A stretch of DNA of 59,555 bases, the filler included, from Globobulimina sp. (taxonomy: Eukaryota): NCBI GenBank assembly GCA_003354225.1. It is 10 parts of 10 records of this genome, joined end to end, with 100 filler letters (N's around TTAATTAATTAA, not from the genome) between each part and the next. Parts side by side here need not be neighbours in the genome. Positions count along the whole stretch, not along the records: positions 47,760 to 53,607 come from PIVH01000420.1; 9 more parts are not named here. One strand, given 5' to 3'. Shown here in pieces: positions 42,365-59,274 of this stretch. A model generated the notes under the pieces. That model worked only from the letters and a program-made list of their open reading frames with translations. It searched no databases and was not told the DNA's origin. The stretch's first letter is position 1; every line of letters begins with the position of its first letter. The position numbers and the translations under genes were made by a program.

Positions 42365-45300
42365 TCAATACGATTTGATTCCTGGCTTTGTTTCGTCATT
42401 TGTAGGTGTACAAACTCTATACAGTGCTCCCCTGATCACTGCTAAATGTGGTTGTCTTGGAGAGTAAAATACTTTGTTTGGAAAGTCTTTCTTCAATCTG
42501 GAAATCAAATACTGACTTCTTGCAAATCCGCCAGTCACTAAAATGCTATCACAATCAATACATGCTGTCTCATTCAATACGTTTTGCAAAAATGATGTTA
42601 TTTTATCCAATATTTCTTGATGTAAAAATAACCAGCCATTTTTATTTATTTTTAAAACAGCTCTGCCCAATTTAAACGCACTCATTTCCTTCTCTTTATT
42701 TTCAATATTTGCTACTTGATATCCTTCAATTTTCTTTTTAATTTCTTTATACATTGGATCGTTTCTTCTCTTTTTCTTTAGCTTTACTAAGCTTCGTTGA
42801 ATTGCATAACAAAACGGTACATTCCAATATTCGCTTTCCAATTTTAATGGCAAACTCATTTTTGACATCTCAAATTCTTTTCGTTGCTTAATCCATTGCA
42901 TTGGTTGCCGCTCTCTAATATGTTCAATAATATTTGATGGGATAAGATCAGTTAATAACGACATAAATTTATCTCCAATTGCTAATGATCCATGCAACAT
43001 TCCATCACAATATGTCGTTGGTGAAACGAAATTATTCTCAATATCCACAACAGCGGCATCCACAGTACAAGCCCCGCAATCCAACACTAACAATTCTTGC
43101 CGCTTAATTCCCGACTCATTTTTTGCGAAATAGCATGCTGCAGCAACAGCTTCTGATATTATTTCAAAATGTTTCATTCCAGCAGCTTCCATCGCTTTTT
43201 TCATTATTTGAACACTACTTCGATTCCGTATGATTAGTACAGGTGCTGTTACCACCCAATATATCCTATCTTTACCAATATCATCAATACCCGCTAATTT
43301 ATTGAATGAATTAATAAAACGCAATGAATGTTGAATAATACATTCGAATGACTTAGTAATTAATACTGACAACGGCAACGATGATACACCATCGGATGCT
43401 TTAATTTCTATACCTCCTTTCAAATGATCTTTGCTGTATAAATATGGCTTAAAGTATTGGAAATACATATATTTATCCTGTTGTTTTTTTTCTTTTGCTT
43501 TGGCATATCTCTCTTCTGCAACATAACCAAAAGCCACTGCTTCTTTTGTTGTTTTGTCAATTAACAGAGCCGCGAGATTTTTTTGCAATTCAACAGAGGC
43601 TCTCGAATCGCTCCAATCTTGAACTATTCGCTGGTGATCTGGGGCATCAGCAAGACAAAATGCAGCAGAAAACCCAAACGATCCAAAATCTATTGCAACA
43701 ATTTGATCAACAGCCAATGTTTCAAGCTTAGAGAGTTTGCCGCCTTTTGGCCAGTGTTCCGCCAACAATTCATACACATTTAAATGATGATTATTTTTCG
43801 CAGCTGAAAGCGCGGAAAGTCCTTCAAAGTCCTTCAAAGTCATTTTGATTGACTGTTTAATCAATAATTTAACAATTTCAATATGTCCATATAAAGAAGC
43901 AATTAATAATGGTGTTCTGCCTTCAGTGGTCGTTGCAACGTTAACATTAATATGATCGGTTGATAACAATGTTGCTACAAATTTTGTGTTTCCTTCCTTA
44001 CACGCAACGTATAATGCGGTGGCACCATCTTCTTCTCTTTTTTCATTAACATCATAAGAGGGATATAAACGCAATAAGTTTAATAAAGCATCGTAATGTC
44101 CATATTGACATATTTCAATCAAATTGCATTGGTCGATGTTGGTTGAAATACATAATGTTTTGCATTGTTTTTGGGTCGTTGATATTTGCTTCATTCTTGA
44201 CTCCAACTTCAATAATTTGACACGATCGTTTTTTGTCTTATGATTAAATTTCTGTATTAATTGTTCAATTGTCATTGTGCTTTCATCTGGATCAAATATT
44301 AGAATTTGCCTTAAATTTTGTGATGTGACTTTAAATGATAATAATTGAGCTAAAATATCATCATTCAATACAACACTCAAAGTGCGTTGTTTTGTGTAAT
44401 TCTGCGATTCATTGTCGGTATCAGTATCAGTATCGGTGTCAGTTTTTACATCGTCAGTTTTTGCATCGTCAGGATTGCTTTGAATATAATTATAATATTT
44501 TATGGTGATAACATTACCGAATAACTTACATAATTTATCTATGTATAACCAGTTATTTTTATCACCAATGAAAAATGGTTTTACTTTCTTATACCCATAT
44601 TTTACGGATTTATGTCCATAGTTTTTATACTGGAATTTATTTTGATTCATCAGCCATAAATTTATATTTATCGCTTTTATTTGAACTGCAATGTTACCAA
44701 ATAACTGGTTCACATATTGTGGATATAAAGAATATTCTTTGTTTGCCATTGCTTCGTAATATTCAATAAATTTGCCACTCACAATATCCTTATTTATGAC
44801 CGCTTGATCATCCAATATGTTATTTAAAATATCCATTGCTTTGCACTCCCACACATAAGTCTGACCCAATGGAACATGCGTGATCGACTCTATTCGAAGT
44901 TGAATGTGAAGAAATAGTCTCTCGTCCTCCGCAGGAAAGTCACTCACAGCTCGACAGTCAAAAAACGAATAAAAATGAGGTGCGTCGTGCAATTTGTTCA
45001 GCTGTAATACCAATCCGTATCCATTAGAAAAAGTTACTGCCACTTGCATTCTCCCAGTGGTGCTTAGAGGGCCGTACATCCATCCGATGACAGAGCCAAA
45101 TACCATCGGTTTATTGATGCCGTGGTACACCACATTGCCAAATGTCTCATCCACCACATCGTCCCCAAATATATGTATAGCTTCATATAAATGTCTCGAC
45201 CAATGATGAAATGCGCTGTTTCTTGCAATCAATTCCTTATCCGATTCACCTGGCAATTTACGGAAAGTATCGCTGAATTTTGCAGATAATTCATCAAAAC

Positions 45301-46846
45301 AACAATAAAAACGCATCGATAATACTGCTTCAATGGTCATTGGCGCGCCTAGCATGATTCCGGTGTCTTGCTGTTTGACCTCATCACCAATCAGATAATA
45401 ACACTCCCGCTGTTTTCCATAATCTGAGTTCAAATAATCCTCCGCTTTTTTAACTTCATCGTCATATTCTTCTAACGGAACATCGACAAATTTATTTTCT
45501 AATATTTCCCTCTTCAAATCTTGATATTTTGGGGGTATATACCAACGATTCTCTTTATACCGAGTCCAATATTTATATTTATAGCCGAAACTATATTGAA
45601 TATTATTTTGAGCGCATACGTGTTCTCCAGCAGTTATTTGGTGTGTTTTTGCTGCTTTCTCTTCCTCATCGTTTGTATCGTTTTTATTGTCTGTTTGAAC
45701 CACTTGAGATACAAATTTATTGTTAGTAAATCTATCCAAACCGGCTATTTCCCTCAGTTTTGTTTTTTTTGTCCGTATGAGCTGCTGCAATTTTTGGAAG
45801 GTGGGGTCTGAATAATTCGTATGAATAACATCGCTCTGCAATTCGTAATTAGAATTCTCATCGCTTTTATTATCACTCAATCGATATATCATTTCTTTCT
45901 CTTTTTCCGTCAAACGATAATTTAAATCGAATGAATGGAATAAATAGCAATGGATAACATCAATTTGTTTATGCAAATAAACTACATTTTCATCATCAGC
46001 GTCATATATCTTATTTCTTTTCGAGTCTCTTCTGTCTCTGAAATTTCTTAGCAACGGCTTACAATCTCTTAAATTATTACATTTAACATAATTATGGCAG
46101 AAATAATCAATAATTTGCTGCAATTCATCATGATGTTTGAACAGAATATGATGATAATCATTGTATAGCAATTCTGCACCATAGTTTATGGCATCATCTT
46201 CAAAGTATTTATCAATCAAATTATTATTTATTTTATATTCACTCAAAATTGCACCGACGCGGTTTATGGAGTAACAACTTTTGCAGATACCATCGCATTC
46301 AGTCACGCTTGAATTTGAACCGAACCATTGTTGGATATTATTTTCATTTTTCTTTTCATCGCTGAGCTGAATGATATTTTCCGTCTCATTCTCATCATCG
46401 CCAATTGCAATGATTGGTTTTCGTTCAATTGATTGTGTTAAAAGATTGGTTAACTTTTGTCTGTATTTATCATTTTCTGTTCTCAGTTGAAGTATGATGG
46501 TTTTTTGTTCATTAAACTCTTTTTTTAATTTATTGTGTGCAAATTGTAATTGTTCAAATTTGACTTTATAATCAATATCTGTTTCTTTGTGGACATGTAT
46601 TTGTGGGCTTTTTTGTTCAGTAATATCGGTTTTGGGTTTATGAGATTCTAAAAATTCTATGGCGTCTGCAACGTTGGAATGTAGTTGTGCTGCCTTGAAA
46701 GACAATGATTCGTCGAAACCCATTGCCATCAATTTTTCGTAGCATTGTAATTGTTTGAAAAATACGTCGTCATTTGGCTGCTGTACCGGGTGTTGATGCC
46801 GCTTGGTGGCCACCCTCCCGACTGCAGCATGTTGCGCTGCACCCAT
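42365..46846 (-). CDS. UBA - coiled coil - ADP-ribosyltransferase-like - ankyrin repeats - HSPA12-type Hsp70 fusion protein
   Basis: Intronless. UBA: EKLMAMGFDESLSFKAAQLHSNVADAIEFL. ART: VYHGI...GPLSTT...VAVTFS...SDFPAEDERLF. ANK: GATALYVACKEGN, GRTPLLIASLYGH. Hsp70-like: VAIDFGSFG, WVVTAP, SEAVAAA, LVLDCGACTVD, LVTGGFARSQYL. Confidence 0.85.
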   Translation of the reverse strand: MGAAQHAAVGRVATKRHQHPVQQPNDDVFFKQLQCYEKLMAMGFDESLSFKAAQLHSNVADAIEFLESHKPKTDITEQKSPQIHVHKETDIDYKVKFEQLQFAHNKLKKEFNEQKTIILQLRTENDKYRQKLTNLLTQSIERKPIIAIGDDENETENIIQLSDEKKNENNIQQWFGSNSSVTECDGICKSCYSINRVGAILSEYKINNNLIDKYFEDDAINYGAELLYNDYHHILFKHHDELQQIIDYFCHNYVKCNNLRDCKPLLRNFRDRRDSKRNKIYDADDENVVYLHKQIDVIHCYLFHSFDLNYRLTEKEKEMIYRLSDNKSDENSNYELQSDVIHTNYSDPTFQKLQQLIRTKKTKLREIAGLDRFTNNKFVSQVVQTDNKNDTNDEEEKAAKTHQITAGEHVCAQNNIQYSFGYKYKYWTRYKENRWYIPPKYQDLKREILENKFVDVPLEEYDDEVKKAEDYLNSDYGKQRECYYLIGDEVKQQDTGIMLGAPMTIEAVLSMRFYCCFDELSAKFSDTFRKLPGESDKELIARNSAFHHWSRHLYEAIHIFGDDVVDETFGNVVYHGINKPMVFGSVIGWMYGPLSTTGRMQVAVTFSNGYGLVLQLNKLHDAPHFYSFFDCRAVSDFPAEDERLFLHIQLRIESITHVPLGQTYVWECKAMDILNNILDDQAVINKDIVSGKFIEYYEAMANKEYSLYPQYVNQLFGNIAVQIKAININLWLMNQNKFQYKNYGHKSVKYGYKKVKPFFIGDKNNWLYIDKLCKLFGNVITIKYYNYIQSNPDDAKTDDVKTDTDTDTDTDNESQNYTKQRTLSVVLNDDILAQLLSFKVTSQNLRQILIFDPDESTMTIEQLIQKFNHKTKNDRVKLLKLESRMKQISTTQKQCKTLCISTNIDQCNLIEICQYGHYDALLNLLRLYPSYDVNEKREEDGATALYVACKEGNTKFVATLLSTDHINVNVATTTEGRTPLLIASLYGHIEIVKLLIKQSIKMTLKDFEGLSALSAAKNNHHLNVYELLAEHWPKGGKLSKLETLAVDQIVAIDFGSFGFSAAFCLADAPDHQRIVQDWSDSRASVELQKNLAALLIDKTTKEAVAFGYVAEERYAKAKEKKQQDKYMYFQYFKPYLYSKDHLKGGIEIKASDGVSSLPLSVLITKSFECIIQHSLRFINSFNKLAGIDDIGKDRIYWVVTAPVLIIRNRSSVQIMKKAMEAAGMKHFEIISEAVAAACYFAKNESGIKRQELLVLDCGACTVDAAVVDIENNFVSPTTYCDGMLHGSLAIGDKFMSLLTDLIPSNIIEHIRERQPMQWIKQRKEFEMSKMSLPLKLESEYWNVPFCYAIQRSLVKLKKKRRNDPMYKEIKKKIEGYQVANIENKEKEMSAFKLGRAVLKINKNGWLFLHQEILDKITSFLQNVLNETACIDCDSILVTGGFARSQYLISRLKKDFPNKVFYSPRQPHLAVIRGALYRVCTPTNDETKPGIKSY

Positions 46847-46974
46847 TGAGTTAGTGAGTTTTTTTGCAACACAAATACTGACATATATGTTTGATAACCA
46901 GCCCCTTTGCAAATGTACAGTAGCTTGAAAACGAAGTCACTCCATCTAACACACCAACTAAATAAGCAAACATC

Positions 46975-47172: not shown

Positions 47173-47411
47173 AATCCCATATCCATTCCTCCAGTCATTG
47201 ATATTATTTGTGAGTGATATGAATGCGTATAATGCAATTTTCGTTTTTGAGGTACTTTTTTTACAGTCGATATCTCTCAAAAACAAAAAATGCAGATTTT
47301 AAGATCCATTAATAAACTCATGATCAGCACAAAATAATTAATTAAAACACTTTGGTTCACAGCATTTCATTTTTTAATTTGTACAGAAATCGCGAGGATT
47401 TTCTTTTTAAA

Positions 47412-47659
47412 ATGGGAAACAAAGAAACAATGAGAAAAGCCAAAGCCACAGTGACTAAAACAGAGAAGTTTGATTTTCAAATATTTAAAACAAACAGAAC
47501 TGAATGTAATTGCAGTGAATACGACGAGGAAATCATCAAAAATTGCGATCATTTATTACGGATAGCATACGGCTTACGATATTACCAATTATTATGTGGT
47601 AAAAACTCGAACTCGAACTCAGAAGCAATATTTAGCGAATATAATTTTGTAGCAATGCA
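47412..47659 (+). CDS. 5' fragment of a protein possibly related to the N-terminal region of the ART-fusion protein
   Basis: MGNK... with TECNC...CDHLLRIAYGLRYY, loosely similar to TECDGICKSCYSINRVGAILSEY in the 42365-46846 protein. Confidence 0.4.
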
Positions 47660-48381
47660 NNNNNNNNNNNNNNNNNNNNNNNNNNNNNNNNNNNNNNNNN
47701 NNNTTAATTAATTAANNNNNNNNNNNNNNNNNNNNNNNNNNNNNNNNNNNNNNNNNNNNGATCACGGACTTGAACTCAAGTCACCCGGATGAAAAAAAAA
47801 ATAGACATAGTATTCATACATAGTAGTCGTACACAGTACCGCCGTACAGAACCTGTTCAATTTTTTGCCTTAAAGCATTTTTTTTCTACAGGGTAATTAT
47901 TGTGAATACACAAACAATATGATCATATAACACACCGTATGTGGTTGGTTGATGATGTAGCTGTGAACAAGGACATGTAAAGTAAGCATTAAGATGAAAG
48001 TTTTCTTGAAAAAACACTGAAATTAAAACAATGGATCACTCATTAACTCGTTGTTTTTTTGCACGAGATCTCAAATTGTATGTGTTTTGTTGTGTGTCAT
48101 TGTTATTGTTTGGCGTATCATCAACAGTATCAAGTTGGTGATGTTTCTGTCTCCTACGCTTCGGTCTCCTACGCCTTTTATTCTGTGATATATTATTATT
48201 ATTACCCGATATTATTTGATCATCAGTATTGGAATTAATATATGTATTATTTGTATTGTTTACATTGGAATTATTTGTATCTGAATGAGAATTATTTGCG
48301 TTTGAATGATAATTACTGTTTTTTAAATCCGTAACAACTGTTTTTTTTATAGTAACAACTGTTTTTTAAATCCGTCTCACT

Positions 48382-50047
48382 ATGGGTCAACTGATACAAA
48401 TAGTACATAAACATGAAGAAGATATGATATCACGCGATGAATTGGTTGAGAAAATGTTGGAGCAGTATCCTCCAAATGTGCTCAAAATGTTTCGTGCTGC
48501 AAAAGATGCGTCATTGAAGACAGAACGTAAATTATTAAAATCTATGAGCTCAGAGTCTCGGATGAAACAATTTTTAAAAGATATAATTAAAACAGAAACG
48601 GAATTTAACAAAGTCTATGAACCATTAAAACAGCAACAAAAAGAAGAAAGAGCCAAAATCGAATCAAATATTTCCAAATATGAACGTAAAGAGAAATGTT
48701 TAAATCAAGACGTATCTTCATTGGGTGACTTAATATTTGCGCAGTCGATTTATATTCGTTCGTTACAAGATTTTATGGAAAGTGTCATCAATGAATGTCA
48801 TATTAAAGGAATTGTTATATACAATCACGGTGTCAATATGAAGAAAATCGAACGTAGTTTCTATAAATGTTTCTATGTTTATAATATGAAAACCGGTCAC
48901 AAACAAATAACGGATATATTAAGAGCGTCCATTGTTTTTCAATCATTCAGAGATTTATATGGTGCGTTCAATATCATTTCAAAACAAGCTGGCCAGAATA
49001 AAGAAGTTGGCCCCATTTTAAGGGTAAAAGACAGATTCAATCCTGAGACCGTGCCATTTGGTTATCGCGATTTATTGATAAATATTCATGTTCCGGGTTC
49101 GAAAATTGTCGGTGAGATTCAGTTACATCATAAAATGTTACGTACTGTATATCAGTATAAAATGTTACGTTATTTTGTTTAATCGATTTTTTTTTATCAG
49201 GTTTTATGATCGAAAACATGAATCGCATGCAATTTATAAGAAAGCGCGTTTATTTCAAGACCTTGATACCGGCACTAATGTTGCTTATGAAATGGCAGCA
49301 AAACGGTATAAGATGGAATTTAAAGATGAAAATGATGAAAAAATGAAAGGCGTCGACTCGATTGAAAAATTAGCGCAAACATTTGATGACGAAAAAGAAC
49401 TTTGCATATTAATTGACAAAGCATCGGATTGTGAACGCTATGATGATATGAGAACTTTGTGTAAAAGGTTGGCGGCAATAAAAAAAAAATTAAAGCAAGA
49501 TTTCGACGATGACCAAAGGGATTCATTATGGTTAGCATATAAAAAATGTACAGCACGATTACGTTCCGCATTAGAGGAAGATATTGGAAATGTATATTAT
49601 GAAAACATTTTATTGAATGAATTGGAAAACGTTTGCGACGAAGTTTTTACGATACTGACAGATTTAGCCAAGATTGTGAAAGATAAAAACGATGCTGACT
49701 CTGAATGTTTTTATTTGAAAATGGCAGGCGATTATTCAAGATATATGGTTGAGTTTCAACCTTCTCCGGATTTACCATATATGGGTGCTGCAAGGGAGTG
49801 TTATGAGAAAGCTATTGCTGTCTCAAAAAATGACGGCGTCCAAATATATTCGCGACTTTGCGCTGTTTTAAATTATACCGTATTTTTAGAAAAACACGCT
49901 AAAGAAACGGAATCTGCCATTAAAACCGCACAGAGAGCGATTGATTATGAGAAGTTTAAAAATAACAAACTTGGGGAAAACGAGCAAATAATTGTAGATT
50001 TATTAAAAGAGAATATTGAACTCTGGGAATCGAACAATGGTGATTAA
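48382..50047 (+). CDS. RelA/SpoT-like nucleotidyltransferase - 14-3-3 fusion protein (2 exons, intron 49137-49200, ~533 aa)
   Basis: Removing the GT..AG 64-nt intron joins the two ORFs in frame (HKM|FYD). RelA/SpoT-like motifs: MKKIERSFYK, ITDILRASIV, RVKDRF, GYRDLLINI, GEIQL, SHAIYK. 14-3-3 motifs: ERYDDM, LWLAYKK, FYLKMAGDYSRY, RLCAVLNYTVF, LLKENIELW. Confidence 0.88.
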
Positions 50048-50169: not shown

Positions 50170-50355
50170 TTCAGTCTTGCTGTGAACAACAATGGTATCA
50201 CGTATCAATGCAGGTGCAAACGGAGAGAGAAATGGTAGTCGTGTCCATAACACATTATTTAGACCAGAAACATCTGCGAACTTTACCCTAAATGTGGGCG
50301 ATGAGCAAGATTCTATATTAATCAGCACATTTTTCAGTCTTGCTGTGAACAACAA
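50170..50355 (+). repeat. ~143-bp copy of 52048-52190 flanked by 23-bp direct repeats
   Basis: TTCAGTCTTGCTGTGAACAACAA at 50170-50192 and 50333-50355. The insert differs from the source at about 6 positions. Confidence 0.9.
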
Positions 50356-50414: not shown

Positions 50415-51939
50415 TCACCATCCGTCTCCAACAGTAAGCTGTTGTATCATAGCCAAACCATTTTGCGGTTGATCCATCGGCACCTTTTTCACAAAGCAAA
50501 TAACAATCAATGCAGTAAATGCACAGAAATACAAATTAAAAATCTATTATTGAAGAAATATAAGACAAATGAATACCATATGCCCAGCTCCTAATACTTG
50601 CAGAAACGTCAAATTCGCATAACTTTGATAATACCCAGCCACATTATTAGCCACTATCCAGCTATGATTCCCTGCACCATTCCATTCTTTTTTATACCGC
50701 CAATCCAATGCTTGCATCCAATCATAACCGCCATACCAATTTACAATGTAATCCCAGACACCAAAGTACACCAACACTTGCATTCCACCATCCAACAGCA
50801 CCGGTATATCCTGCGCGAAATCCTTCATCCAATCCCCAGCAAAGACCAAATCCATTTCAACCATACGATTGCAAGCAACCCATTTATTAACCTCAGCGCC
50901 TAAGCCTTTAATCGTTGACTGCAAATTAAAGAACTTGTCCTCATTTGAAAAATCATAACAGAGCGGCGGCACTGCACATTGTACCCGGACATCATAGGGG
51001 TTTATTCCAGTGGCCGTCACCGGGATTAATTCGCAAATATTGCAGGTATCATACGCATTTTCGCAGGCCACGTATGCTTCTGTTCCATTCAAGTCATTAC
51101 AAAGTTTGATTTCCTCCTCACACAAAGGGAGACATGCTAGCATAGTGTCGTAGGCTGCGTTGGATACTAAATTATGGTCCTTTGCATAGGGCGGATATCC
51201 CGGATATTGATTGTATGGATCAACGAGGCCATCGCCAATAGCTACACCCTTCAAATTAATGTAAATATCGCCAGGTTGTAAGTGCTGATTTCCTTCGAAT
51301 ACTCTCCGAGAAAAATGCGGAATATAATGTCCGGCGTACGACTCTCCAGTAACATAAAAATCGAGTTTGGAATATTTTGTGTTGTTTTTTAAGAAAAGTT
51401 GCATGAATTCATACAAATCCTGAGCTACCTGGTCCTCATTATACACTGTGTCGTCGGGCTTGAATTTGTCGTCGTAGCTGTAACCCGTTGCAGATGGCTG
51501 GTCGATCCATATTACGTTTGCTTGCGCATTCCATGAATACTATGGGTGATGGGTTTGTATTGTTATGTGATATAGGAATAATTTATGTGTTTAACTGGAT
51601 TCATTGTGAGAGACATATTTTTTTGGACATGATATGGCCCATTTTCTACCATCAAAGCCAGCATGGAGCTGCATCCCGGACCTCCTGTTAACCAAATTAA
51701 TAATGGGTCAGTTGATGGATTATTCCGAGATTCAAAAAACCAGCTAGTTGTTATACGGTTCAGTTGTACTATTTTTTTTAGACATAAAAATAATTATAAC
51801 GCAACTAAAATAAATGAATTTCTTTTTTGTGGACTGGATGATAACCAGAGAAATTAATAACTGTTGATGGGCCAAATCCACTCAATGTAATCCCATATAT
51901 CGTACTTAGAAACAGTAAGATGTGATGTAACGAAGCCAT
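50415..51939 (-). CDS. serine carboxypeptidase (peptidase S10), multi-exon, secreted
   Basis: Signal peptide, [61 protein letters not shown]. Confidence 0.95.
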
Positions 51940-53966: not shown

Positions 53967-56900
53967 TTAATCCGAAATGATCGGAGATAAATTCATTAGG
54001 TCCACTTGGTATAGGTAGTTGAATCTTTTTGTTTCTTTTACGTATTGAAGAAGATTTTTCCAGATTCTGACTTGAGTCATAATATCTAGCTCTTTTTCAA
54101 TGTCCGGTGGCTCTCGGATTGTATAAGGATAAAATACGTCATCCAGATGGAATCTATTATTATTCCGGAATCCTTTCCATATAATATGGAAGGAATCAAT
54201 CATTCGTTTTCGTTGGTTTATGTACAATGGACATTTCAGGAAATAATGATGAATTGTTTCTTTTACGTTTAAATTACAATTATGGCAATTATGTGATTCA
54301 ATTATTGATTTATCAGTATCTTTAAATTTATGTTTATACAAAAAAGAATTCAATTCTATATGTCCCGATACAATCCGATTGAGCATAGCTGCCTCATCTT
54401 TATTCAAGTATCGTATTATTTTGTTTAGTTTATTATGTAATGTTGGATTAAATTGGTACATTTTATAGCTATCTTGGGTTGGTTTCGTATTTCTATCAAG
54501 CCATGATTTGCTCCAATGATATCTAATTTGTTTATGTAGCTGGGTAATAGTTGTATTATATGATATTTCATTGTACAGAATTGGATTATAGTTCGTATGT
54601 TTTGCTGCGAAATTAGCCAATCTATCAACTTCATCATTAAATATGTTGTTGTTATGAGATTTTATTTTAATAAATGAAATGAATATATTTGGTTTGATAT
54701 GTTGGATTTGGAGTAGTTTAACGAAGATATTTTCGATTAATAATTTTGTTTCATTATATTTCGGGTAATTTTGGCCATTAATGAATTGGAGAAGTGGTAG
54801 GTTATCGATGTATATTTTATAGTGCATTTGTGAATTTTGTGGGTGATTTATTATATAATTAATTATCATATGGACAGCTTCTATCTCTGCTGTGGTGATT
54901 GTAACTGGTATCTGGAAGTAATATACTTTTTTATATGGTAATGTGTGTGATGGTTGTGGTGGTATATAGATTGCAGCACCTCCTCTTCCTGGGTTTGGGT
55001 CACATGATCCATCGGTAAATGATATTGTTATTGTTTCACTGGAAGGTGTTGTAGGATTTGCTGGGTTTAATATGACTTCAAAATTTGTGGGAAGATTTTT
55101 TAAATTGTATGTAGGGGAGGAAGTTATTTGAATTTTTGACATTTTATTGAAATTCAGTGTTAAAGCCTTTATTTCATTGTTATTCTGGCAGTATTTGGTG
55201 GCAATTATTAGTGGATTTTTATTAAGATTTACAAATTTATTTGGTTTGTTTTTATTTTTCCTACGATATTGATGTGTTTGTATTGTTTCTTTATATCTTG
55301 TTAGGTCTCTATAGGTTTTATTTAATGGATGATATGAATCATTGTAATAAACTCTGGCAAGCTGCCTCATAGTGAGGTAATGTGCTCTATTATGGATGGG
55401 TTCAATTTTTAGGAGAAATTGGAGGATATCAATTGGTGAGTCTAATCTGCAGGGAATTGCTAGGCGGAGGAATTTATTTTGTAGTGTATTTAGTAAATTA
55501 TTAGAATCATATGGATAATAATGGGTTAATCCATATTCTATTCGGGATCGCGCTAAAGATTTATAAAGGATTGCAATCGATAAAGGAGATAATTTAACAC
55601 CGGATTTTATTGTAAAATATAAACGCCAATAACTTCGCATGGTTTTGGCTCGGATTTTTGCAAAATGGGCATGGAAATTTAAACGTTCATCGAACCACAG
55701 TCCAAGATATCTCGCTGTTTGTTCATATTGGATTGGAATAGAATGGATTGTATATTTACTTATTAATGTAGTTTTATTTGTGTTGGGATCAGTTTTATTT
55801 GTGGATTTAGGATAGTATTTGATAGGATTACTGTGAGTAAAATTCATTGAGAGGCATTTTGTTGGATTTATCATAAGCTGCCATTTATTACACCAATCGC
55901 CAAAGTTATTCAATTCTTTTTGGAGGAATTTGTAACGGATTGGATCTTTTGATCCTGGACTGGTCCAAAATGCTGTATCGTCAGCAAAACAAGCAAAGTG
56001 GACAAAATTTGGATATTTTATTTCAAAATCATTGGTGAATAATATATATAGGATTGGTGATAAGGCAGATCCTTGTGGTACACCAATAGGTTGCGCCACC
56101 CAATTTGACTCTGCTTTTTTTGCAATAACTTTGGTGAATCTGGTTTGGATGAAAGAAGCCAGCACATTCAATATGTTTCCTTTTATTTTATTTTTTATTA
56201 ATTTATATAGTAAGCCGTTATGCCAAACGCTATCGTAAGCTTTTGAAAAGTCCGTAAATACAACGTCAGTATCACTGACCATATCAAACGAAGTTTGAAT
56301 GTCAGTGATAAATGTTGTTAGTACATCATCGCAGCAACGGTTTATTTGGAAACCACATTGATAATTATTGAATATTTTATTTGCGACACAGAAATGTTGA
56401 AGTCTGTTTGCTAAGATTTTCTCAAAAACTCTACCTAGACAGGAAGAGATCGCAATGGGTCGGTAGTTTTTAGGATTACTATGATCCTTATTTGGTTTTG
56501 GTATTGGTAATAGATGAGAGAAGTTCCAGTAACCTGGAAACACGCCATCGGTCATACATTTATTGAACAACGGGAGGAGACAATCAATGAGAGCTTCTCC
56601 ACCATGTTTAATCATTTGATTATGAATTCTGTCTGGTCCATATGCTTTATGTGTGTCCAGATTTCTTATTACGGAGCGAATTTCATATGACAATATAGGA
56701 TCATTTAGTAATTGGTAATCATTATTTAGCAATGGAATGTTTGTATTTATTTGCGATGGATTTATTATATTTGATTGTTTATTTTGTGTTAATTTATCAG
56801 ATAGGATGTGTCTATTATCATTCTCATTTATTTTTGGATTTTCCCGATTATTTTTGAGGAATTTGGGGACATAATTATTAATATATTTATGCCAATCATT

Positions 56901-58283
56901 ATGTTTTTGACTGGATTTTGGTTTTGGAGGTCTTGTCATGGCCTCTTGGAGTGCTTTAGCTTGTTGCTTTGGGTCAACTATATTGGATTTATTTTTATAA
57001 TTTAATGGGGGGATATTATTCGTGTTAATATCATTTGATTTATTATTAGTTATGGTACGCCAGAAACGTCTACCATAGTCTTTACATGTTTGAATATATT
57101 TATTTATTTTATTATTATAGGCTGATTTAGCAGTTTGTATCGCATTATATTTCTTGGATTGGAGGATATTCAGATCCTTTTTTATTTGTTTATATTTAGG
57201 AAAAATGTGAAAATCTGTGAAATGGCGCTTTGCTTTCTTCTTCATGCGCTGTATTCTGCGACGAAGGCGTTTGCATTTCCTTTTTAATTTTTTTATTTTA
57301 TTATTCCACCATGGTTTATGGCCACGGTAGTAATGTTTATATCCTATGGATTGTTCTGCTGTGTATAGAATGAGATATGTAAGTTGTTCAGTATATATAT
57401 TTGGATTTTGATCAAAATTTGTGTCTTTTATGTGTGTTTCAAGCGTTTCTGTATATTTGCTCCATTTTCTGTTGTCCGATAGGTTCCACGTTTTCTTTGT
57501 CTCACTAAAACCATAAACATTTTCAACGTCAAAGGTCGTTTCAATAGGAACGTGGTCAGAGCAGTTTGGATCATAAAGTGAATGGAGAATACACCATTTT
57601 GTGTGTTTCAAATCATTGGAAATTAGTGTTAGATCAATGGCGGATTTGGTTTGATAGGATTTATGGATATGTGTATAGGATGGATTAATTGTATTCAATA
57701 TTTGCATTTCAAGGAAGTTTAAACCATCAACAAAATTATTGGATTCAGTGGTCGATCGATTACTGCCCCATATAACATTTGGCACATTAAAATCTCCAGC
57801 GATCACATTTTTATTCACAGTCAGTGGATAGTCAAAAAGTTGATCGATATTGGGATTTCTGGGGCAGTTATATAAGGAATGGATTCCAATATTCTGGTCG
57901 CCACTATGGAGGATTATACTTGTTATGTGACAATTTTTTGTACGCTGAGTATGGTCATAGTTTGGTGGTGAATTTAATGGTGTGATTAACAGTGTTTCTC
58001 TATATAAGATAGCTGTTTCCGTGCCTGTATAATGGACTTTGTATTTTGGAAAGAATTTGATTGGGAATTCAATTATATGGACTTGGTTATTTTTATCTGT
58101 GTAATGTGGATTTTTAGGAGTCATAGCAAACCGCAATGTGGCACTCCATTCTTGCAATAGGAGGAAATCTATTTGTTTCGATATCATTATTTGATAAATT
58201 TTCTTGCATTTATCTTCTTGTGTCATTTTTGTGGGGCTTATTAGGCCACTCACATTGTATTGTAATATGTTATACTTAACCAT
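53967..58283 (-). mobile_element. non-LTR retrotransposon ORF2: APE endonuclease - reverse transcriptase - RNase H - Cys/His knuckle (RNase H-bearing, I-group-like)
   Basis: ILQYNVSG, LLLQE, AGDFN, SAIDLTL, SDH. KAYGPDRI, NYRPIAISS, QCGFQ, DFSKAYDSV, GVPQGSALSP, FADD, YLGLWFD. FTDGS, AEIEA, YIDN, KSH..NDEVDRLA. CHNC..ETIHHYFLKC. Uninterrupted 1438 aa. Confidence 0.97.
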
Positions 58284-59274
58284 TGTTTATGTGATATTTG
58301 ATACATTTTTGGTAAAATTTTTTAGTTTGATTAAAATCCAATCCGTTTTTATGTTTCGACATAAAAACAGATAGTAAAATAGTTGTTAACATTGTAGGTT
58401 TGGTGGTGTTGAAAAACACCTGGTAATTAATTATTTTTTCATTTTTGTTCATTAGTTTTACTATCGACTGACAAGGAATGGCCTCAGTTTGCAAAAAGCA
58501 AAACATGAATCCCATTTTTATCAAAACTATCGATAGTTTAATATTACTCAAAATGTATGAATAAATTAATATGTATATATTAAAAATAAAATTAACAGAA
58601 TAACTATGGATTTGGAAATGATAGGATGTATTTGTTGTTGTTTTACGCAATGCGATTCTGCGTAATGTCATTTTGCTCAATGCGTTTGGATCAATTATTG
58701 TTACGTTGTTTAGACATAATGCTTTTGTGCGCAATGTCATTTTGTTCAATGTAATGGGAGTTGGTGCTGTATTTGAATGGGGTGATGTCGATGTAGTACG
58801 TGTATGTGATGGATTTGTTGTGAGTTTGATGATATTTGATACTGCGAAATTGCGGATATTTGGAACTGCGAAATTGCGTAGTTTTTGTATGATTTCGTTA
58901 AGTGTAGATTTGATGTATTTTGTGTTCAATATTTGGGTCTGGCTTGGTTCAATATTTGGGTGTGATGGATTTGGATGACTCTGTGTTTTATGTGCTACAT
59001 AAAATAGTGCATTGGTTAGGGAATTATTTTGTGATGGTGACACATATAATTTATCACCACGCGATTCTTTGTTTAATAAATTGATTAATACGACAACTAA
59101 GAATAGCAACAATGAAAAGTTGAGCGATCTCAACAAGTTTGCTTGGCAAGGTGCCATTGTCATAGTAATTGATTTCTTAGTATTTTGAAGAAGTGTTGCA
59201 GTGTAATAATACACGTTTTTTACTTGAGTGTTAGTATGGCACAGCAAATAGAAACTGCAGCAACAGGTGAACAA
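58276..59274 (-). CDS. upstream ORF of the retrotransposon (possible atypical ORF1 or long 5' leader)
   Basis: Its stop overlaps the ORF2 ATG by 8 nt (ATGGTTAA). No zinc knuckle or RRM is recognisable, and it contains short internal repeats. Confidence 0.3.
   Translation of the reverse strand: MFTCCCSFYLLCHTNTQVKNVYYYTATLLQNTKKSITMTMAPCQANLLRSLNFSLLLFLVVVLINLLNKESRGDKLYVSPSQNNSLTNALFYVAHKTQSHPNPSHPNIEPSQTQILNTKYIKSTLNEIIQKLRNFAVPNIRNFAVSNIIKLTTNPSHTRTTSTSPHSNTAPTPITLNKMTLRTKALCLNNVTIIDPNALSKMTLRRIALRKTTTNTSYHFQIHSYSVNFIFNIYILIYSYILSNIKLSIVLIKMGFMFCFLQTEAIPCQSIVKLMNKNEKIINYQVFFNTTKPTMLTTILLSVFMSKHKNGLDFNQTKKFYQKCIKYHINNG

Follow-up and report, generated by a model that had tools for sequence, protein, structure and literature searches.

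The central finding of our analysis is that one nuclear gene with an intron, from a foraminifer-like eukaryote, almost certainly encodes a 533-aa fusion protein. The protein is of a cytosolic type and is made up of an N-terminal helical region, a divergent SYNTH domain and a complete 14-3-3 domain. Judged from residue conservation and a structural model, the second of these parts very probably belongs to the RSH SYNTH domains and has kept its donor site intact. The gene lies in a window of 59,555 nucleotides, the whole stretch of DNA that was analysed, from the assembly of Globobulimina sp. (GCA_003354225.1), and all coordinates (Table 1) count along that window.

In a plain ORF listing the locus appears as two plus-strand frames, at 48370..49182 and 49082..50047, an appearance that speaks for a faulty gene model, two separate genes side by side or contamination with bacterial DNA. 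We regard such a reading as extremely improbable. When the 64-nt GT-AG intron proposed in an earlier note on this DNA is removed, the joined exons (48382-49136 and 49201-50047) amount to 1602 nt, that is, 533 codons and one terminal stop. The ATG of exon 1 is the first one past an in-frame stop, and the M-G-Q-L start is common to the exon 1 product and its relatives P0015 and P0016. An upstream exon with an additional domain was considered and dropped, given the in-frame stop and the lack of any AG between 48370 and 48381. The joint from 49136 to 49201, which skips 64 letters bounded by GT and AG and across which the earlier note had proposed to look for reads, is present in one contig each of run X1 (study P1) and run X3 (study P2), with 255 and 247 letters, respectively, on its shorter side. 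In X2, a contig begins at 49201, where it carries a loose end of 17 letters that match the last ones of exon 1 exactly, and run X4, which is 99% alike, retains the intron. Runs X1-X4 are RNA by guess, such that the contigs without the intron represent either RNA after splicing or DNA from a relative, about 95% alike, that has no intron here; the joined frame is supported on either reading. In addition, P0015, a protein of a separate data set, can be aligned with the joined product as one ungapped block over residues 1-294 (242/294 identical, 82%), and the alignment therefore crosses the junction at residue 252. The fusion itself is independent of the intron, since exon 2 alone carries, in one frame, the entire 14-3-3 domain together with the final helices of the enzyme domain.

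The surroundings of the gene are likewise those of a eukaryotic genome. GC content of the coding sequence is 33.5%, the same as that of the window, and the neighbouring genes are eukaryotic, including an S10 carboxypeptidase, ankyrin, bromodomain, anoctamin and PPR genes and a LINE-like element. The gene is monocistronic, with the ankyrin-repeat gene and the S10 carboxypeptidase as neighbours. Of the differences that separate the gene from the relatives' contigs, 40 are listed and 30 of these affect third codon positions (20 of 23 in exon 1); 84 further differences lie outside that list. An Rfam scan of the whole window returned nothing at gathering score. The suggestion that this is a spliced nuclear gene, and not bacterial contamination, is thus upheld by the contigs of two studies, by P0015, and by composition and neighbours.

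Table 1. Features of the fusion gene and its product, with positions along the window
Feature	Position	Strand	Details
Exon 1	48382..49136	+	start ATG, codons 1-251 and 2 nt of codon 252
Intron	49137..49200	+	64 nt, GT..AG (GT at 49137-38, AG at 49199-49200), 77% A+T
Exon 2	49201..50047	+	last base of codon 252, codons 253-533, TAA stop (50045-50047)
N-terminal helical region	48382..48714	+	aa 1-111; conserved together with the enzyme domain across the close family (alignment A1)
RSH-type SYNTH (pyrophosphokinase) domain	48715..49315	+	aa 112 to about 290; interrupted by the intron; structural and profile matches
D178-I-L-R181	48913..48924	+	putative Mg2+/ATP motif D-x-x-R; invariant in 37 sequences
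E245-I-Q247	49114..49122	+	putative catalytic E-x-Q; invariant in 37 sequences; aligns with YwaC E-I-Q and SaSAS E-V-Q
Acidic linker	49316..49390	+	about aa 291-315; motif E-K-M-K-G-V-x-S common to P0022
14-3-3 domain	49391..50044	+	aa 316-533, nine helices; Pfam, PDB and fold match

Of the two Pfam matches that the earlier note expected, 14-3-3 (PF00244) lies far above its cut-off (103.6 against 33.2 bits; E 1.6e-29, profile positions 5-223 of 223), whereas RelA_SpoT (PF04607) reaches 16.3 bits (E 0.012) in the exon 1 part, below the curated cut-off of 27 bits, which is an operational threshold on one curated profile applied here to a domain scanned without its last helices (encoded in exon 2). 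Close relatives behave in the same manner, with four of the 10 scanned (from 12 matches) scoring 16.7-18.9 bits, and 7 of 10 distant family members match the profile, one of them over the cut-off at 33.6 bits. Searches of PDB sequences with the exon 1 product as a single sequence (phmmer) gave coiled-coil noise only and no RSH match, and those with the close-relative profile A1 gave SAM-domain matches only, contributed by the relatives' C-termini, and again no RSH. The broader A3 profile of 37 sequences returned 12 PDB matches at E<=10, all 12 of them RSH synthetases and six at E<0.01, among them YwaC of B. subtilis (2.9e-8), Tas1 (6e-6), 3l9d (1.2e-3), SaSAS (2.2e-3) and RelP (3e-3).

The fold points in the same direction. 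The structural model represents P0015, the relative with 82% identity, in place of the window's joined protein, and was obtained with AlphaFold2 at a pLDDT of 92.3 and a pTM of 0.88. Foldseek placed this model among RSH synthetases in all 25 of the matches listed (best E 6.6e-7, probability 1.00; 58 matches at E<=0.001). VIA-align gave Z scores of 13.7 to B. subtilis Rel (rmsd 2.6 over 135) and 13.6 to SAS1, with matches covering the model from residue 112 to 259-287; rows 1-28 are RSH proteins (Z 13.7 to 8.4), behind which stand RsfS and polymerase beta-family folds (Z<=8.4). The earlier note had proposed the fold of the N-terminal domain as a check, and in the model of P0015 it comes out as that of the RSH synthetase domain. 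Ahead of this domain, the P0015 model has helices at 2-26, 31-53, 58-91 and 94-101 (mean pLDDT of 89-96 in 10-residue blocks). The linker that follows it has a net charge of -4 (aa 291-314) and is poorly modelled, with pLDDT below 50 at residues 40-51 of P0002.

The ordered motifs listed in the earlier note (K-x-x-x-R-S-x-x-K, TDILRA, KDRF, GYRD, EIQL and a later H) are all present, and the window protein holds every conserved active-site residue of the 37-sequence alignment. Beyond the invariant residues of Table 1, K154, R158, K162 and K216 are kept in at least 90% of the sequences, and both sets align with their counterparts in YwaC, Tas1 and SaSAS; R218, G227, D230 and N234 are nearly invariant. 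Window residues D178 and R181 correspond to SaEAS D121 and R124, and R181 to Apk1 R330. According to the accessible part of the SaEAS/Apk1 account, R124/R330, E182/E382, Q184 and K154/K353 of these two enzymes are ATP-binding and the SaEAS D121A variant is inactive (PMC12691689); the ATP-site residues named there are all matched in the window protein. The acceptor motif is another matter. The replacement of G-Y-x-S-x-H by GYRD, to which the earlier note drew attention, is real and family-wide: the family has G-Y-R-D-x-L-x-N where SaEAS has G-Y-K-G-L-N. Because this motif is unlike those of characterised enzymes, the substrate is not deducible from it, and because the classical G-Y-x-S-x-H is missing, we class the family as a divergent SYNTH-domain family and not as (p)ppGpp synthetases proper.

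Comparison with known synthetases refines this placement. RelQ/SAS1, RelP/SAS2 (YjbM, YwaC) and the SYNTH domains of long Rel/RelA are the best structural matches (Z 13.7 to 12.1), YwaC is the best sequence match to the family profile, and these enzymes have K-D, G-Y-R and E-I-Q in the same order as the window family. Classical enzymes, however, carry K-x-x-x-S-x-x-x-K and D-x-x-G-x-R, whereas in the window family R takes the place of S, another R stands at D+3, and D and L occupy the S and H positions of the acceptor motif. The window protein has no HD, TGS or ACT domain. In sequence pattern (D-x-x-R, K-x-x-x-R-x-x-x-K) the predicted active site is closer to those of Tas1/Apk1, a Pseudomonas type VI effector and (p)ppApp synthetase, and SaEAS, an exported alarmone synthetase of Streptomyces, than to that of classical RelA/Rel. 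Tas1/Apk1 (6ox6; Z 10.4, rmsd 2.4 over 133) and SaEAS (8vx3; Z 11.6, rmsd 2.8 over 142) have the fold in common with the window family, are reached by the family profile at 6e-6 and 2.2e-3, and share with it K-x-x-x-R-A-x-x-K, D-x-x-R and E-x-Q followed by H..YK-type helices; the profile aligns to Tas1 residues 262-316 with the same variants of D-x-x-R and K-x-x-x-R-x-x-x-K. Unlike these two proteins, the window protein is eukaryotic, intron-containing and intracellular in type, showed no signal peptide or secretion domain in searches of a general kind, has no evident immunity gene, and adds an N-terminal helical region and a 14-3-3 domain.

The 14-3-3 domain is complete, as the earlier note had it, with a Pfam match along the whole profile, a PDB match to 14-3-3 sigma at 3.2e-19 and a model of nine helices (64-76, 80-96, 103-125, 131-161, 165-185, 193-208, 215-231, 236-253 and 259-279 in P0002 numbering). 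Foldseek found 461 matches to this model at E<=0.001, with TM scores on the target of 0.73-0.82. In what we take to be the zeta numbering, K366, R373, R432 and Y433 are the equivalents of K49, R56, R127 and Y128 (alignment A4), and helix C, which spans the first two of these, is continuous over 103-125 in the model; the claim that this tetrad is kept, along with N173, N224 and W228, is thereby borne out. Residues equivalent to K120, R18 and E89 are kept as well, the latter two at positions that we presume to be those of zeta. The domain differs from canonical 14-3-3 proteins in not standing alone, in being just 27-31% identical to three canonical sequences, in a C-D helix hairpin 16 residues shorter, and in having I in place of the K85 equivalent. 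The shortened hairpin and the replaced K85 equivalent make the pairing of two chains uncertain, and a complex prediction with two copies of the 14-3-3 part (score 0.05, mark 0.32) weighs neither way. No canonical mode I or mode II 14-3-3 motif occurs within the 533-aa protein. The stretch R-F-N-P-E-T-V-P (aa 218-225) was considered as an internal site, but it has Arg at -5, the canonical position being -3 or -4, and its S/T-x-P is also found in relatives that have no 14-3-3 domain, which leaves the idea of an internal site as a lead only.

How might such a protein work? We postulate that the SYNTH domain is an active enzyme that would take the beta,gamma-pyrophosphate from ATP and attach it to a purine nucleotide at the 3'-OH, and its product may be of the (p)ppApp/(p)ppGpp type, as the active-site pattern is closest to those of Tas1/Apk1 and SaEAS. 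The 14-3-3 domain may serve as an input or targeting module that binds phosphorylated Ser/Thr, whether on a partner or on its own protein, and it possibly pairs two chains, such that protein-kinase signalling would set where or when the SYNTH enzyme acts; the SAM, UBA, WW, ubiquitin and kinesin domains of relatives could play the same role for other inputs. Taken as a whole, from gene and fusion through donor site to product and phospho-control, this explanation has about an even chance of being right, and the proposed product and phospho-dependent control are, in our judgement, somewhat more doubtful than that. The phosphorylation-gated messenger synthase or toxin of the earlier note therefore survives in part: the spliced gene, the RSH-type SYNTH fold and the 14-3-3 domain with its tetrad all stand, the messenger or toxin function and its phospho-gating remain conjecture, and the coupling is not unique, as SYNTH joins many domains.

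Other explanations deserve consideration, and two of them concern the chemistry. It is unlikely, in our view, that the SYNTH-like domain is a pseudoenzyme that senses nucleotides or alarmones without catalysis, although its acceptor motif resembles that of no characterised RSH and the window's subfamily has N152 at the first basic position of the classical R-x-K, where most relatives have K. The residues of the metal and ATP site (D178, R181, E245 and Q247) are invariant over all 37 sequences, some of which share just 23-30% identity, and the active enzyme Tas1 is also without a basic residue at that position (P-I-K); N152 was thus dropped as a change that would disable the enzyme. Somewhat less unlikely, perhaps, is that SYNTH acts on RNA and not on free nucleotides, and that the family represents regulated growth-arrest or immune effectors whose appended domains are sensors. 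CapRel (7ztb, Z 10.7, rmsd 2.7 over 142; 9erv, Z 10.7) and FaRel2 (8pu4, Z 7.4) appear in the list of structural matches, the SYNTH region has a basic net charge of +9, and a single enzyme module with many swappable appendages, the arrangement found here, is typical of conflict and effector families. On the other hand, the profile reaches nucleotide-using enzymes first (YwaC, Tas1 and SaSAS), tRNA-modifying toxSAS make up none of its 12 matches, and CapRel and FaRel2 score below SAS1, SAS2 and Rel in structural Z. An active nucleotide pyrophosphokinase is the reading that we prefer.

A third alternative concerns the appendage, and is the most serious of those considered, if still improbable: the 14-3-3 domain may be no phospho-reader here, but a scaffold for structure or dimerisation, or a lid that closes on the enzyme within the same molecule, the tetrad of the window protein being a leftover. 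The main evidence comes from P0022, the only other SYNTH/14-3-3 fusion found (184/337 identical to the window protein), in which V replaces the R56 equivalent and K the Y128 equivalent, such that two of the four phosphate-binding residues are gone. The two fused proteins thus do not have phosphopeptide binding as a conserved property. Moreover, identity between them is 70% for SYNTH and 47% for 14-3-3, and this faster evolution of the latter, together with the substitutions in P0022, argues against phosphopeptide binding as the conserved role of the appendage; the short C-D hairpin also fits a role other than reading. Against this, the window copy keeps K49, R56, R127, Y128, K120, N173, N224 and W228 equivalents, which would be unexpected for a freely drifting groove, and the groove-lining blocks are invariant in alignment A4. 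For the window protein itself, we continue, tentatively, to favour a phospho-reading 14-3-3 domain.

The SYNTH module is a promiscuous unit of a large, lineage-expanded family and is joined to many protein-interaction domains. Across 48 long family members, 40 Pfam families were seen, with SAM, UBA, WW, ubiquitin, kinesin, MATH and 14-3-3 among the partners and 14-3-3 in just one of the 48, which indicates that 14-3-3 is one of many interchangeable appendages and not a unique coupling. Language-model look-alikes of the SYNTH family are clusters with diatom members, and serve as leads only. No longer protein resembling exon 2 was found among 1288 candidates, a weak result in a collection from which the window's own 533-aa product is also absent, and no relative was confirmed among metagenome contigs with 219 (P0002 query) and 491 (alignment A5 query) pattern matches. 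This many-partner family, and the loss of two phosphate-binding residues in P0022, are new relative to the earlier note.

Fusions of this general kind are not without precedent. The divRel group of eukaryotic SAS, from Dictyostelium, Aspergillus, Gibberella, Thalassiosira and Phaeodactylum, comprises stand-alone SYNTH-type proteins outside the plastid long RSHs, comparable in this respect with the window family, and the accessible part of its description names neither rhizarian members nor 14-3-3, SAM, UBA or kinesin as partners (Atkinson et al. 2011, PMC3153485). The same source, in the portion available, describes plant CRSH/Rsh4, in which a SYNTH domain is combined with EF-hands and activated by Ca2+, an earlier example of an RSH synthetase that carries a eukaryotic domain for signalling input (PMC3153485); CRSH/Rsh4 is a plastid long-RSH derivative with a Ca2+ input, whereas the window protein has a presumed phospho-Ser/Thr input. 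For 14-3-3 fused to a nucleotide-consuming enzyme, the precedent is provided by PARP4-like proteins with an appended 14-3-3 in amoebae, lancelet, sea urchin and Capsaspora, as far as the accessible part of that study goes (PMC4245714). Unlike the window protein, these have an NAD+-using PARP catalytic domain and no RSH domain, and belong to other lineages. Our literature search found no description of the SYNTH/14-3-3 architecture or of the family, in keeping with the earlier note, whose author knew of none; supplementary tables of the RSH censuses (PMC3153485; bioRxiv 10.1101/575399), parts of these sources outside that search, may list entries from sequenced Rhizaria.

It is tempting to speculate, though only tentatively, that Foraminifera, and perhaps further protists such as diatoms, possess a large family of cytosolic Tas1/Apk1-like pyrophosphokinases that act as regulated signalling or cell-fate effectors, either making (p)ppApp/(p)ppGpp-type nucleotides or depleting ATP, with the 14-3-3 member coupling Ser/Thr phosphorylation directly to alarmone-type synthesis in the cytoplasm of a eukaryote. 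By analogy, such effector logic would be comparable to that of SAM-TIR enzymes such as SARM1.

Alarmone synthetases are counted among the enzymes of bacteria and plastids. In the accessible part of the 2011 RSH census, eukaryotic SYNTH-only proteins are listed only as scattered, unplaced sequences (PMC3153485). A SYNTH domain whose catalytic residues are kept, and whose copies have multiplied and been shuffled together with typical eukaryotic domains for signalling and sorting, is the signature of uptake into eukaryotic regulatory networks. If these enzymes are active, they would offer a direct way to learn whether eukaryotic cells make use of (p)ppApp/(p)ppGpp-type nucleotides or of tRNA pyrophosphorylation. 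The 14-3-3 fusion, among the few cases of a 14-3-3 domain covalently joined to an enzyme, offers a simple and testable input in phosphorylation, and could connect nucleotide chemistry of the alarmone type with kinase signalling in a eukaryote.

Two plus-strand frames, at 48370..49182 and 49082..50047 in the ORF listing, become one when a 64-nt intron (A+T 77%), with GT at 49137-38 and AG at 49199-49200, is removed, as an earlier note had proposed for a protein of about 533 residues. By script, 48382-49136 joined to 49201-50047 is 1602 nt long and reads as 533 codons closed by a single terminal stop, with a G+C content (33.5%) equal to the window's. The start of the gene is well defined: an in-frame stop lies directly upstream of the ATG, no AG falls between the two, and two relatives also begin with M-G-Q-L.

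Four public sequencing runs containing the stretch (X1-X4), which we guess to be of RNA, were compared with the window, and the junction that the earlier note had wished to see in reads was found there. The joint 49136->49201, skipping 64 nt with GT..AG borders, occurs in one X1 contig (study P1) and one X3 contig (study P2), with shorter sides of 255 and 247 letters, respectively. An X2 contig starting at 49201 carries a 17-letter loose end that is the end of exon 1, and X4 (99% alike) retains the 64 nt. The X1 contig spans 48413-49136 and 49201-49574, and therefore unites the enzyme domain with the first three 14-3-3 helices. Divergence from the window is about 5% in the contigs carrying the junction; the joined frame is under purifying selection, since the listed differences fall mostly at third codon positions (30 of 40 overall and 20 of 23 in exon 1, with 84 further differences beyond the listing). 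The intron-less contigs could be spliced RNA or a relative's intron-less gene, and either reading supports the joined frame.

Residues 1-294 of the joined product align to the relative P0015 (296 aa) as a single ungapped block, with 242 identities; the block crosses the junction at residue 252, and the close family is uninterrupted here (E-I-Q-L-H-H-x-x-F-Y-x-x-K-x-x-S-H-x-x-Y-K-K-A-R-L-F). The fusion itself is independent of the intron, because exon 2 alone holds the last enzyme-domain helices and the entire 14-3-3 domain. The last five codons (50030-50044) differ in relatives; X1 and X2 contigs diverge at 50029 and reach their own stop within 15-21 nt, and thus the extreme C-terminus, beyond the W in helix I, lacks conservation.

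The earlier note had named Pfam as a check on both domains, and the outcome differed between them. The 14-3-3 half matches PF00244 over profile positions 5-223 of 223 (E 1.6e-29, 103.6 bits vs a cut-off of 33.2), whereas the exon-1 product barely touches RelA_SpoT (E 0.012, 16.3 bits vs a cut-off of 27). Of 10 close relatives scanned, 4 match RelA_SpoT just as weakly, at 16.7-18.9 bits; among 10 distant members 7 match it, and one of these exceeds the cut-off (33.6 bits). The identity of the enzyme half as an RSH (RelA/SpoT-homologue) synthetase (SYNTH) domain is nevertheless settled by structure, transitive sequence evidence and the active site. The fold was examined on P0015, which is 82% identical, and on the two exon products, each separately. 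The P0015 model, built with an alignment of 22 close relatives (pLDDT 92.3, pTM 0.88), gave 58 Foldseek matches at E<=0.001, and the 25 listed, comprising Rel, RelA, SpoT, SAS1, SAS2/RelP, CapRel and exported SAS, were all RSH synthetases, as the note's structural check had anticipated. In VIA-align, the model scored Z 13.7 with B. subtilis Rel (rmsd 2.6 over 135), 13.6 with SAS1 and 10.4 with Tas1 (rmsd 2.4 over 133); rows 1-28 were all RSH, and RsfS and folds of the polymerase beta family came next, none above Z 8.4. The SYNTH domain occupies residues 112 to about 265-287 of this model.

A profile searched against 1.84 billion representatives matched 179 proteins at E<=1e-10, 71 of them at E<=1e-30; the 1484 at E<=0.001 include 14-3-3 and SAM proteins, because 14-3-3 and SAM columns entered the profile. 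When the 37-sequence family alignment was searched as a profile against PDB sequences, all 12 matches at E<=10 were RSH synthetases, among them B. subtilis YwaC (2.9e-8), Tas1 (6e-6), S. mutans SAS (1.2e-3), SaSAS (2.2e-3) and RelP (3e-3).

Throughout these 37 sequences (down to 23% identity with P0015), D178, R181, E245 and Q247 are invariant and K154, R158, K162, K216, R218, G227, D230 and N234 nearly so; the window protein has them all. The family's K-x-x-x-R-A-x-x-K ... D-x-x-R aligned with A-P-I-K-S-R-E-R-A-M-Q-K ... K-D-L-A-R of Tas1, and G-Y-R-D ... E-I-Q-L-H ... H-x-x-Y-K-x-x-R with SaSAS. The ATP-binding residues of SaEAS/Apk1 are R124/R330, E182/E382, Q184, N169/N370 and K154/K353; a D121A variant is inactive, and both (p)ppApp and (p)ppGpp are products of SaEAS (PMC12691689, mBio 2025, on exported alarmone synthetases). 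The enzyme half is thus a SYNTH domain of the RSH type whose donor site is intact, and in motif pattern it stands nearer the Tas1/Apk1/EAS branch than classical Rel/RelA. The family carries R, R (at D+3) and D-x-L in the places that S, G-x-R and S-x-H occupy in classical enzymes; the earlier note had correctly read the replacement of GYxSxH by GYRD. The loop before G-Y-R-D (49033-49056, aa 218-225) is R-F-N-P-E-T-V-P; the 14-3-3-linked subfamily has two other members, and both read R-F-N-P-D-S-V-P. The loop's S/T-x-P, at the active-site edge, could be a candidate phosphorylation site; some relatives that lack 14-3-3 have it too, and for 14-3-3 binding the spacing of the Arg is non-canonical.

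The 14-3-3 domain is complete, as claimed. All 60 listed among 124 distinct PDB sequence matches at E<=1 were 14-3-3 proteins (best 3.2e-19), and exon 2 as modelled by AlphaFold2 has nine helices and fits solved 14-3-3 structures at TM 0.73-0.82 on the target; pLDDT averages 79.5 and is low only over the linker and the initial 16 residues. In an alignment including three canonical 14-3-3 sequences, Y-K-K-C-T-A-R-L-R aligns ungapped with Y-K-N-V-V-G-A-R-R, a 16-residue deletion lies at the helix C-D hairpin tip, and the register is supported by the model, in which helix C is continuous over exon 2 residues 103-125. On these two grounds K366, R373, R432 and Y433 (full-length numbering) correspond to K49, R56, R127 and Y128 in zeta numbering; N173, N224 and W228 equivalents are retained too, and the manual alignment in the earlier note was right. 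The domain is functional-looking.

The N-terminal helical region and SYNTH module form a family unit, present in single copy in the window. Its homologues were found in environmental contigs and in transcriptome sets of eukaryotes, of which one is named Ammonia sp., a foraminifer. Among 48 long members, 40 partner Pfam families were found (E<=1e-4), including choline-transporter-like (5), ubiquitin and WW (4 each), UBA (3), kinesin, EF-hand and SAM (2 each), and MATH, TLDc, galectin, intein/HINT and 14-3-3 (1 each); SAM is the usual C-terminal partner. The 14-3-3 case, P0022, is identical to the window protein at 184/337 positions (SYNTH part 70%, linker 58%, 14-3-3 part 47%) and has the same subfamily marks, G-P-I-L-R and I-V-G-E-I-Q. 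As a second fused sequence it shows that the fusion predates one species. Some family members carry two SYNTH-like units per chain: P0003 (a partial internal duplication), P0088 (K-D-R-F...G-Y-R-D twice) and P0147 (a ResIII/DEAD helicase-like region between them). P0113, P0116, P0135 and P0146, found through the profile's 14-3-3 columns, have two full 14-3-3 domains in tandem, in P0146 after a long N-terminal extension; 14-3-3 within larger proteins is therefore not unique to the window gene.

The neighbouring genes are eukaryotic (see table), and no Rfam family match was found anywhere in the window.

Features surrounding the fusion gene in the window
Feature	Position	Strand	Remark
Ankyrin-repeat protein	42368-46936	-	neighbour
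Assembly gap	47640-47710		~700 nt upstream of gene, inside frame 47346-47711
Short tandem/near-tandem repeats	48268-48375		5' flank
21-nt units	48268-48309		
32-nt copies	48301-48332, 48344-48375		
Exact 23-nt direct repeat	50170-50192, 50333-50355		flanks ~140 nt
S10 serine carboxypeptidase	50550-51539	-	neighbour
LINE-like retroelement	53970-58286	-	endonuclease, reverse transcriptase, RNase H in long frame; 4 kb downstream of gene
Bromodomain protein, anoctamin, PPR protein			other neighbours

The repeat-flanked stretch just past the stop codon has a depth of 30-40 vs 4-10 for the gene (X2, X3), and its contigs continue unlike the window on either side; a multicopy element or a small gene that is expressed may lie here. 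An X4 contig goes back 44 at 48315->48272, so the presumed promoter is polymorphic in length. Assembly gaps account for 792 N in the window.

For the enzyme half, a tRNA-modifying, translation-arresting activity like that of CapRel or FaRel2 is still a live alternative to the nucleotide synthesis proposed below; both are structural matches of the P0015 model, at lower Z. A pseudoenzyme is likewise to be considered, and the invariant D/E/Q/R residues argue against it. For the C-terminal half, a solely scaffolding role still stands and is suggested by P0022, which has V at the R56 position and K at the Y128 position. Phosphopeptide binding, judged by these residues, thus appears to be kept in the window copy and not to be a conserved property of the fusion.

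In the literature searched, no description of the SYNTH family or the 14-3-3 fusion was found. In the portion available, the 2011 RSH census has SYNTH-only proteins (divRel) as scattered entries from Dictyostelium, some fungi and two diatoms and mentions neither rhizarian members nor such architectures (PMC3153485); a 2019 census also scanned eukaryotic genomes (10.1101/575399). Plant Rsh4, in which EF-hands are joined to an RSH enzyme, is a precedent for the addition of a eukaryotic input domain (PMC3153485), and PARP4-like proteins, which carry an appended 14-3-3, are one for the joining of 14-3-3 to an enzyme (PMC4245714). Language-model look-alikes, which are leads only, point to unnamed clusters with diatom members and to one cluster with 34% PF04607 carriers.

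The fusion that the earlier note described is real and was well described: one gene in one frame, with a SYNTH fold, conserved donor-site residues and a complete 14-3-3 domain that retains the tetrad. We postulate that the enzyme would transfer pyrophosphate from ATP to the 3'-OH of a purine nucleotide, that its product would be of (p)ppApp/(p)ppGpp type, and that the 14-3-3 domain may bring phospho-dependent control or targeting. Within its family, a divergent and probably active RSH SYNTH domain has been recruited into eukaryotic multidomain proteins.
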